NCBI GenBank assembly: GCA_963719515.1
Contig: CAVRCJ010000003.1
Location: 288,001-352,000, forward strand
Reading direction: 5' to 3'
Origin: an uncultured cyanobacterium
GTDB lineage: Bacteria > Cyanobacteriota > Cyanobacteriia > CAKZMO01
DNA length: 64,000 bases
Positions within the stretch are counted from its first letter, which is position 1. Each line of letters opens with the position of its first letter. Made by a program: the position numbers and the translations under genes. The notes under the pieces are model-generated. The model had not been told where the DNA came from and made no database searches. It saw only the letters and a list, made by a program, of their open reading frames with translations. Shown one piece after another: positions 53,984 through 54,508 of the stretch.

Positions 53984-54508
53984 TTAGTAGCGACCGAAGG
54001 GACCGCCGGGCTCTTCTTCGCCCACGGCCAGGGTGGTGACGGGACTCTCTTCCCCCAGCGCTAGGGTCGTGAAGTCCTCTTCTCCCAAGGCACGGGTAGA
54101 GGCCACTGGACCTTCTTCCCCCAGGGCGCGGGTAGAGACTACCGGATCCTCTTCGCCTAGAGCCAGGGTAGTGATCGGCGCTGGGTCAGCGGATGCCGTT
54201 CTAAATTCAGAGGCGTGAACCGTAAGTGAATTGGTCCGTGCGGTGACAATGACGGCGTCTGCGCCGTTATCCGGGGTGATGCTGATGGAGGCAGAAATGG
54301 GGGACAGCACCTGGGGAACGATGTCCGTGGGCCGGTCGGCGTCAAAGCTAAATTCGAGAACGGCATCTCCGGGGGTGGGGTCGGCGGAGTTGTCGAGCCG
54401 AGGGTTGGTCCAGCCGGGGGTGGCGGCGAGCCCAGAGGCCTGGATGCAAAGCATTGGAGGTTCGCCGTGCTTGATGACGGTGACTTGGGTGACCTGGAGA
54501 ATTTTCAT
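53984..54508 (-). CDS. multicore graspetide precursor: ~100-aa N-terminal domain plus five (T/S)TxxxGEE cores
   Basis: TTLALGEE, STRALGEE, STRALGEE, TTLALGEE and TTLAVGEE at aa 113-165; adjacent to the ATP-grasp ligase. Confidence 0.88.
   Translation of the reverse strand: MKILQVTQVTVIKHGEPPMLCIQASGLAATPGWTNPRLDNSADPTPGDAVLEFSFDADRPTDIVPQVLSPISASISITPDNGADAVIVTARTNSLTVHASEFRTASADPAPITTLALGEEDPVVSTRALGEEGPVASTRALGEEDFTTLALGEESPVTTLAVGEEEPGGPFGRY

Follow-up and report, generated by a model that had tools for sequence, protein, structure and literature searches.

A putative two-gene plesiocin-type graspetide cassette with a predicted beta-sandwich domain in the leader position of its precursor

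The DNA analysed here (the window) is a stretch of 64,000 nucleotides (nt) from contig CAVRCJ010000003.1 of the uncultured cyanobacterium assembly GCA_963719515.1. On its minus strand, the window carries a candidate graspetide precursor (substrate) gene (53984–54508; 174 residues plus stop, taken from the list of open reading frames (ORFs) and its translation) and, with a GTG start 15 nt after the precursor stop, a gene for an ATP-grasp graspetide ligase of 297 residues (53075–53968). We regard it as somewhat better than an even chance that the two genes are a graspetide cassette of the plesiocin type (group 2), with a small protein as substrate that keeps its N-terminal domain as a carrier. 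By analogy with the plesiocin ligase PsnB acting on PsnA2, the ligase would phosphorylate two Glu residues per core and close two side-chain esters to two Thr/Ser residues; according to the PsnB literature, that enzyme installs two macrolactones per TTxxxxEE core. On the same analogy, the outcome would be five bicyclic hairpins, formed by ten dehydrations with a mass change of −180 Da. The domain would stay attached as a stable carrier rather than a throw-away leader, so that the end product would be a protein of ~18 kDa displaying five protease-inhibitor-like loops, and the ligase would dock on the domain, on a C-terminal PFG motif or on both.

An earlier note on this DNA, made from the letters alone, had described a beta-patterned, folded-looking domain of about 100 residues where a short leader would be expected, and structure prediction bears this out. 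The interval 54209–54508 corresponds to codons 1–100 of the precursor ORF, and the domain itself reaches about residue 102 (codons 1–102; 54203–54508, minus strand). AlphaFold2, run on residues 1–105 with a 94-row alignment, gave a mean predicted local distance difference test score (pLDDT) of 96.2, a predicted template modelling score of 0.86 and seven strands, with no residue below 70. In the model of the whole precursor the domain is still confident and residues 113–170 fall below a pLDDT of 50, which predicts a folded sandwich with a disordered tail behind it.

The fold belongs to no curated family. Neither Pfam nor NCBIfam contains a match to the domain at E ≤ 1, and a Pfam scan of 24 + 30 + 30 relatives returned no family for it either. 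A profile search against the PDB sequences found no relative, only chance matches at E 0.47, and Foldseek found no PDB match at E ≤ 1e-3. The top VIA-align match was the NigD-like C-terminal sandwich of 4pqx, whose Z of 6.4 (root mean square deviation 3.0 over 94 residues) lies below the typical noise level of Z 7–8; the next matches, Ig-like domains of GH2 proteins at a Z of about 5, are also within the noise range. A search of the ESM Atlas led to unnamed clusters only. Neither chagasin, ecotin nor another inhibitor-type sandwich was among the structural matches listed. On the strength of the models, the domain is best described as a generic Ig-like beta-sandwich of an uncurated family. We found no description of it in the literature searched by full text, with the proviso that earlier graspetide surveys may cover such precursors.

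The start of the protein is supported by four observations. M1 is invariant in alignment A1 (23 sequences); an M-[KRQ]-[IV] start is present in all of the 42 homologues with an intact N-terminus, including those from other phyla; a Shine-Dalgarno-like GAAGG (54517–54521, minus strand), read directly from the sequence, stands 8 nt before the ATG; and residues 5–14 form the first beta-strand of the predicted fold. These exclude a start far downstream, one of the three ways in which the earlier note saw its proposal failing. Another, that the region belongs to a described leader group, found no support, as no described graspetide leader motif matched: regular expressions for LFIEDL, L.IEDL, PFFARFL and PFF.RF gave no match in the precursor. 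The sole GG of the protein lies at residue 168, i.e. after the cores, and no stretch resembles a signal peptide: over the first 40 residues, the 10-residue Kyte-Doolittle mean peaks at 1.70, within strand 1. The absence of these motifs, of a double glycine before the cores and of a clear signal peptide agrees with what had been read from the letters.

Downstream of the domain, a linker (RTASADPAPI, codons 103–112; 54173–54202, minus strand) varies in length among homologues, its A1 columns are poorly conserved and pLDDT drops across it. The disordered tail that follows contains five cores of the form [ST]TxAxGEE, located by regular expression, three of them beginning with TT and two with ST. 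On the minus strand, these are core 1 (TTLALGEE, residues 113–120; 54149–54172), core 2 (STRALGEE, 125–132; 54113–54136), core 3 (STRALGEE, 137–144; 54077–54100), core 4 (TTLALGEE, 147–154; 54047–54070) and core 5 (TTLAVGEE, 158–165; 54014–54037). T113, T114, G118, E119 and E120 of core 1 are invariant in A1, as are T148 and E154 of core 4, and T126, G130, E131 and E132 of core 2 are at least 90% conserved. The tail thus carries the TTxxxxEE repeat that serves as the criterion for Group 2 graspetides. The protein ends, as had been noted, with PGGPFGRY (residues 167–174; 53987–54010, minus strand), in which A1 shows no variation at P170, F171 or G172. Of the 42 homologues, 35 have a PFG-x-[YF]-type end, and several of the others visibly stop inside a core or the motif. 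Many homologues (P0005–P0008, P0012, P0024 and P0036–P0047) also have a [TW][TSN]DPR[VLI]DDP motif between the last cores and the PFG end; the window's precursor has no motif of this TDPR[VL]DDP type.

The ligase has no Pfam match at E ≤ 1. Its top NCBIfam match is TIGR04187 (ATP-grasp ribosomal peptide maturase; E 1.7e-21), followed by MvdD and MvdC, and its 76.7 bits against TIGR04187, the GRASP_SAV_5884 subfamily, are under the curated cutoff of 350, which places it outside that subfamily. The closest solved relative is PsnB (7drm, E 5.5e-12), to which only residues 99–292 align, leaving the N-terminal 98 residues unaligned. Residues were mapped onto PsnB with an offset of +20 for the deposited chain, set by the DFR loop that the PsnB preprint places at residues 233–235, and the mapping comes from a single pairwise HMMER alignment in a weakly similar stretch. 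In this alignment, PsnB Arg213, which escorts the ring-forming Glu (PsnB preprint), corresponds to R191 and the DFR loop to D210-Y211-R212; all four ligase residues are invariant in a 50-row ligase alignment. The leader pocket is different. PsnB Tyr171, Ile193, Leu196, Val201 and Phe203 correspond to A149, R171, C174, A179 and V181, and Arg181 and Arg192 to Y159 and P170, so that 0/7 pocket residues are identical. According to the PsnB preprint, only 'Group 2a' enzymes have conserved the pocket residues with which PsnB holds the PsnA2 leader; neither feature of that group, the LFIEDL of the precursor or the pocket residues of the ligase, was found here. The ligase therefore appears to keep the catalytic machinery of PsnB with an altered leader pocket, which fits a substrate without an LFIEDL leader.

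A word-indexed search with residues 1–105 retrieved 43 proteins, including the query, among 63 candidates, with 62–82% identity over the domain. Every homologue that was not visibly cut had three parts, namely the domain, [ST]TxAxGEE cores in variable number and the PFG-x-[YF] end; regular expressions counted 0–12 cores per homologue, the low counts belonging to cut sequences. Across these sequences, the domain-core-follower architecture appears to be a trait of the family. In contigs sampled as one genome per species, 27 loci encode a precursor relative, and in 24 of them a ligase homologue lies 0–1.7 kb downstream on the same strand; the three loci without a ligase are one at a contig end (L005), one with about 300 nt left (L022) and one that is a 44-residue fragment (L027). 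When all ORFs at the 27 loci were clustered, the precursor cluster was found in 22 loci and the ligase cluster in 23, and the next cluster in five, which are close relatives; across the 27 loci, neither a peptidase nor an exporter gene is conserved. One of these loci, from Crocosphaera watsonii WH 8501 (L018:6001-9086), has the precursor and ligase 1.6 kb apart with two extra ORFs between them, and a second short precursor-like piece (7936–8178) also lies between the two genes; this locus may be rearranged or have several substrates.

Precursor and ligase are each single-copy in the window's own genome. The domain is rare among sampled genomes, occurring in 7 of 401 from the window's phylum (two of them with the ligase-linked form) and in 4 of 401 from the phylum of a Bryobacteraceae locus. 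Such a patchy spread over Cyanobacteriota, Acidobacteriota and an Opitutus metagenome-assembled genome (MAG) fits a mobile accessory cassette.

The domain is by no means confined to graspetide precursors. It occurs both alone and fused to core tails beside ATP-grasp genes, the question for which the earlier note had proposed profile searches. An exhaustive phmmer search of 1.84 billion representatives with residues 1–105 matched 331 representative proteins at E ≤ 1e-3, far beyond chance for a query consisting of the domain alone. We classified 188 of the relatives (P0004–P0191) with a hidden Markov model (HMM) of the domain. One domain was combined with two or more cores in 76 proteins, with one core in 11, with no tail in 47 (some of them fragments) and with another kind of tail in 38; a further 15 were tandem arrays of two to five domains, and one had no HMM match. 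Five arrays were inspected, of which four (P0050, P0062, P0063 and P0081) have a signal-peptide- or lipoprotein-like N-terminus and one (P0084) does not. Several core-less tails (L061, L068, L083, L085, L086, L093, L098, P0124 and P0150) contain Trp-Pro repeats (FPWA.N, WPW, PWPRVD).

The core-bearing proteins fall into two subfamilies, with ends of the PFGx[YF] or the PF[GN]xR type, and the PFG end is absent from domain proteins without cores. In the second subfamily (P0086, P0105, P0111, P0112, P0128 and P0153), whose proteins end in PFGxR or PFNRR, the cores often start with K-T (PKTLAFGEEG); having Lys as the first core residue may point to amide in place of ester links. In a quick maximum-likelihood tree of 163 domains, the PFGx[YF] forms made up one clade (Shimodaira–Hasegawa-like approximate likelihood ratio test, SH-aLRT, 90) and the PFGxR forms another (SH-aLRT 99), and the two together formed a weakly supported clade (SH-aLRT 59 to 86). 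This structure makes a single fusion event plausible.

Other partners are also found C-terminal to the domain. Inhibitor_I78, an inhibitor family, passed the Pfam cutoff in P0109 (30.7 bits) and L093 (26.7 bits) and scored below it in P0123, L098, P0150, L122, P0159 and P0124. DUF5818 was fused to the domain above cutoff in five proteins and META in one, and several unnamed folded modules are fused to it as well. The ORFs with I78- or potato-inhibitor-I-like fusions include L093:403-1041, L098:366-1016 and L122:1264-2046, the last of which has a signal peptide and lies downstream of a radical SAM/SPASM gene. A metagenome scan seeded with stand-alone forms yielded 80 loci, in which 0 of 67 domain ORFs had cores and no ligase homologue was detected, 28 of the 67 having at least 1.5 kb on both sides. 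The ligase thus goes with the cores, not with the domain. We conclude from these comparisons that the domain is an independent and widespread module that occurs with or without a ligase and with other C-terminal partners.

Among the stand-alone forms, three related cyanobacterial loci (L030, L037 and L038) have the domain gene directly after a subtilase gene without a signal peptide. In L030:343-1815, as in L037 and L038, a 104-residue stand-alone domain starts 4 nt after a 384-residue Peptidase_S8 gene, and L038 carries two consecutive stand-alone copies and, adjoining them, a gene for a 985-residue ABC transporter. A radical SAM/SPASM gene adjoins the domain gene in L089, L091 and L122; in L089:1871-4324 and L091:5001-7463, it comes after a 223-residue domain protein whose C-terminal module is unnamed, an arrangement hinting that substrates of other maturases may also be fronted by the domain. 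Further neighbours of stand-alone forms are ABC-2 transporters, DUF3466, tyrosinase, RHS and unrelated genes. The idea that the domain always accompanies proteases was rejected: among 106 neighbour proteins, Peptidase_S8 was found at just two loci plus L030.

Retention of the domain as a carrier is favoured by three lines of evidence. There is no conserved cleavage motif, peptidase or exporter, and the linker is variable; the same domain precedes folded modules (I78 and DUF5818) that cannot need a leader; and the domain is more conserved than the ligase. In all 21 loci with both genes full-length, domain identity to the window's (61–78%) exceeds ligase identity (46–65%), as judged crudely from best tblastn segments, with a 100-residue domain set against a 300-residue enzyme. 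On these grounds, the earlier note's picture of a beta-sandwich carrier with an inhibitor tail is favoured as regards the fate of the domain, its product being a prediction. As of Makarova 2022, in the passages used, all characterized graspetides were protease inhibitors, and I78 is an inhibitor family too; 'carrier plus inhibitor warhead' is therefore a recurring theme of the domain, if not its sole context. The case for the domain as a docking element rests on its position, on its conservation and on R91, a residue conserved in the two ligase-linked subfamilies (0.98 and 1.00) but not outside them. A co-fold of residues 1–105 with one ligase chain, run without controls, gave ipSAE values of 0.00/0.00 against a mark of 0.32 and says nothing either way.

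Several points weigh against the retained carrier. The identity comparison is crude, and the pocket mapping depends on one pairwise alignment. The value of R91 as an independent sign of ligase contact is weakened, as the ligase-linked forms look like one lineage and the residue may have been inherited rather than selected for that contact. An unlinked protease could remove the domain; a passage of the literature cited for this puts the share of known graspetides without a GG site at about half. Finally, a precursor without a signal peptide is awkward for a protease-inhibitor role.

The most direct rival takes up some of these points: the beta-sandwich would be a docking element of domain size and thus a disposable leader, and an unlinked housekeeping protease would cut it off, freeing small bicyclic peptides. 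We hold this to be unlikely, though worth serious thought. The domain does sit N-terminal to the cores, the position of every natural graspetide leader, and it is very conserved in the ligase-linked clade. With 0/7 PsnB pocket residues and no LFIEDL, another recognition mode must exist, and the synthetase E-values of classical and domain-type precursors, in the rows seen of a published catalogue (see below), suggest that the ligase diverged together with the leader type. What speaks against a disposable leader is the lack of any conserved protease, C39-ABC exporter or cleavage motif, the varying length and sequence of the linker, and the wide occurrence of the domain family without the ligase, as in the 80 stand-alone-seeded loci. 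A rather more doubtful alternative locates recognition at the other end of the protein, with PFG-x-[YF] as a natural follower, i.e. the recognition sequence of the ligase, and the N-terminal domain unrelated to biosynthesis. It would explain the invariance of P170, F171 and G172 and the presence of a PFG end in both ligase-linked subfamilies and its absence from core-less domain proteins. Typical of graspetide leaders is a conserved Pro with two hydrophobic residues after it, according to passages of Makarova 2022, a Phe is the key leader residue for PsnB, and a leader engineered at the C-terminus functions with another graspetide ligase, going by an excerpt of Johnson 2026. Yet the motif is just five residues long, no natural follower-dependent graspetide came up in the literature searched, and the PFG end might just as well serve as a cap, as a sorting signal or as a protease-facing residue. 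That this is not a working graspetide system at all, the tail being an unmodified acidic repeat and the ATP-grasp enzyme inactive or acting on another substrate, we consider very improbable. The low TIGR04187 score (76.7 against 350 bits) and the lack of a Pfam match would be in keeping with it; against it stand the invariant catalytic Arg and D-x-R loop, the strict coupling of tail and ligase across phyla and the invariance of the core Thr, Gly and Glu positions amid variable spacers.

Beyond the retained carrier, a bolder proposal may be entertained, on which we place little weight: that the beta-sandwich is itself directed at proteases or anchors the protein to a target, and is retained in a five-headed 'graspetide protein', with the PFG end as the natural recognition sequence of the ligase. 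This proposal draws on the recurrence of the module with plesiocin-like cores, with I78 (P0109, L093 and weaker cases) and with a subtilase gene (L030, L037 and L038). If the proposal is true, these proteins would make up a family of modular protease regulators not described before, and would include the first graspetide found in nature to have a follower.

Around the cassette, a perfect-looking inverted repeat with a 15-bp stem (54653–54685, no strand assigned) was picked up by a terminator-like scan between the precursor gene and the MscS-family channel gene upstream of it (54774–56672, minus strand). The repeat is a pattern match only, such repeats being no more frequent in the region than in shuffled sequence; it probably ends the upstream transcript, making the precursor-ligase pair its own unit. 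Downstream of the ligase, at a distance of 215 nt, lies a gene for a 640-residue hybrid regulator (50938–52860, minus strand) with REC, Trans_reg_C, Hpt and a second REC, which is not kept beside the cassette in other loci. Two paralogous ORFs of about 128 residues flank the region on the plus strand (50498–50887 and 58021–58407; 38% identical, E 2e-28); both end in GLGYCP, and Pfam has no family for the first. Only four sediment-metagenome DNA runs, all from one study, were listed as containing the stretch, and no RNA run was among those listed.

Part of this system is already on record. In Carter et al. 2026 (PMC13097080), supplementary file 2 lists at least 15 to 16 entries with the N-domain motif, all assigned to Graspetide Group 2, from Leptothoe spongobia, Okeania, Moorena producens 3L, Trichodesmium, a Bryobacteraceae MAG and other sources. 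One of our homologues (P0007) is identical to the Leptothoe spongobia row, and the window's own gene was not found among the rows listed. The class of gene cluster is therefore, as far as these rows go, already catalogued as Group 2. Also in this source is a classical group 2 precursor from Crocosphaera, which has an LEIEDL leader and a GG and shares the TTLALGEE cores. The HMM E-value of its synthetase is 2.5e-71, whereas the domain-type rows have values of 1e-30 to 1e-39, which suggests, within the rows compared, that the domain-type ligases are a divergent branch. The N-terminal domain of the Group 2 homologues is not discussed in the main-text passages of PMC13097080. The earlier note was right about the folded domain and overstated how unusual the architecture is, given homologues filed as Group 2 and, in the same source, the precedent of CorA. 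What is new here is the beta-sandwich module, with its occurrence outside graspetides, the follower motif and the altered leader pocket, all undescribed in the literature searched.

Graspetide ligases are under development for cyclizing peptides and proteins, and substrate recognition is the central question in this work. The cassette offers a natural case in which a folded domain and a conserved C-terminal motif would replace the short helical or hydrophobic leader, with the leader pocket changed accordingly, and, having two genes only, can be tested directly. Should the domain stay attached, the product would be a ribosomal protein with several macrocycles, blurring the line between peptides made on ribosomes and modified after translation (RiPPs) and post-translationally cross-linked proteins. 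The beta-sandwich itself, widespread and without a Pfam entry, merits its own family description.

Leaders of domain size are not without parallel. NHLP and Nif11 leaders, reportedly described by Haft, Basu and Mitchell in 2010, are said to be domain-sized and to come from a family that also exists as ordinary proteins; they are reportedly helical, with a terminal GG site at which a dedicated exporter cuts. Unlike these, the window's precursor has no Pfam or NCBIfam match at E ≤ 1, no GG site before the cores and no conserved exporter. The plesiocin system PsnA2/PsnB of Plesiocystis pacifica resembles the cassette in its repeated TTxxxxEE cores and single ATP-grasp ligase, and PsnB in the Arg213 and D(F/W)R loop conserved in the window's ligase. 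It differs in that the window's precursor lacks LFIEDL and has a folded domain of 102 residues in the leader position, and in that the window's family has a conserved PFG C-terminal motif and neither a GG site nor a peptidase-ABC exporter. The precursor has no GG cleavage site before its cores, and no NHLM-type peptidase-exporter is conserved at the 27 loci; according to Carter et al. 2026 (PMC13097080), the exporter is frequent in Group 2 and not obligatory. The same source describes CorA (corallotide, group 15, Corallococcus), of ~22 kDa, with an AlphaFold3-predicted helical N-domain (residues 1–86) and five repeats, and thereby provides a precedent for a domain-sized N-region in a graspetide precursor. 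As described there, CorA, like the window's precursor, is large, has a predicted folded N-region before five repeated cores and was studied as a full-length product; its N-region is, by contrast, alpha-helical, its cores form KxxxD isopeptides, and its cluster, confined to one genus, includes an oxygenase and a beta-lactamase-fold protein. The I78-fused proteins share with the window's precursor the N-terminal beta-sandwich and, after it, a small C-terminal module of inhibitor type; in them this module is a predicted fold encoded by the gene itself, without a ligase, and two cases are above the Pfam cutoff.

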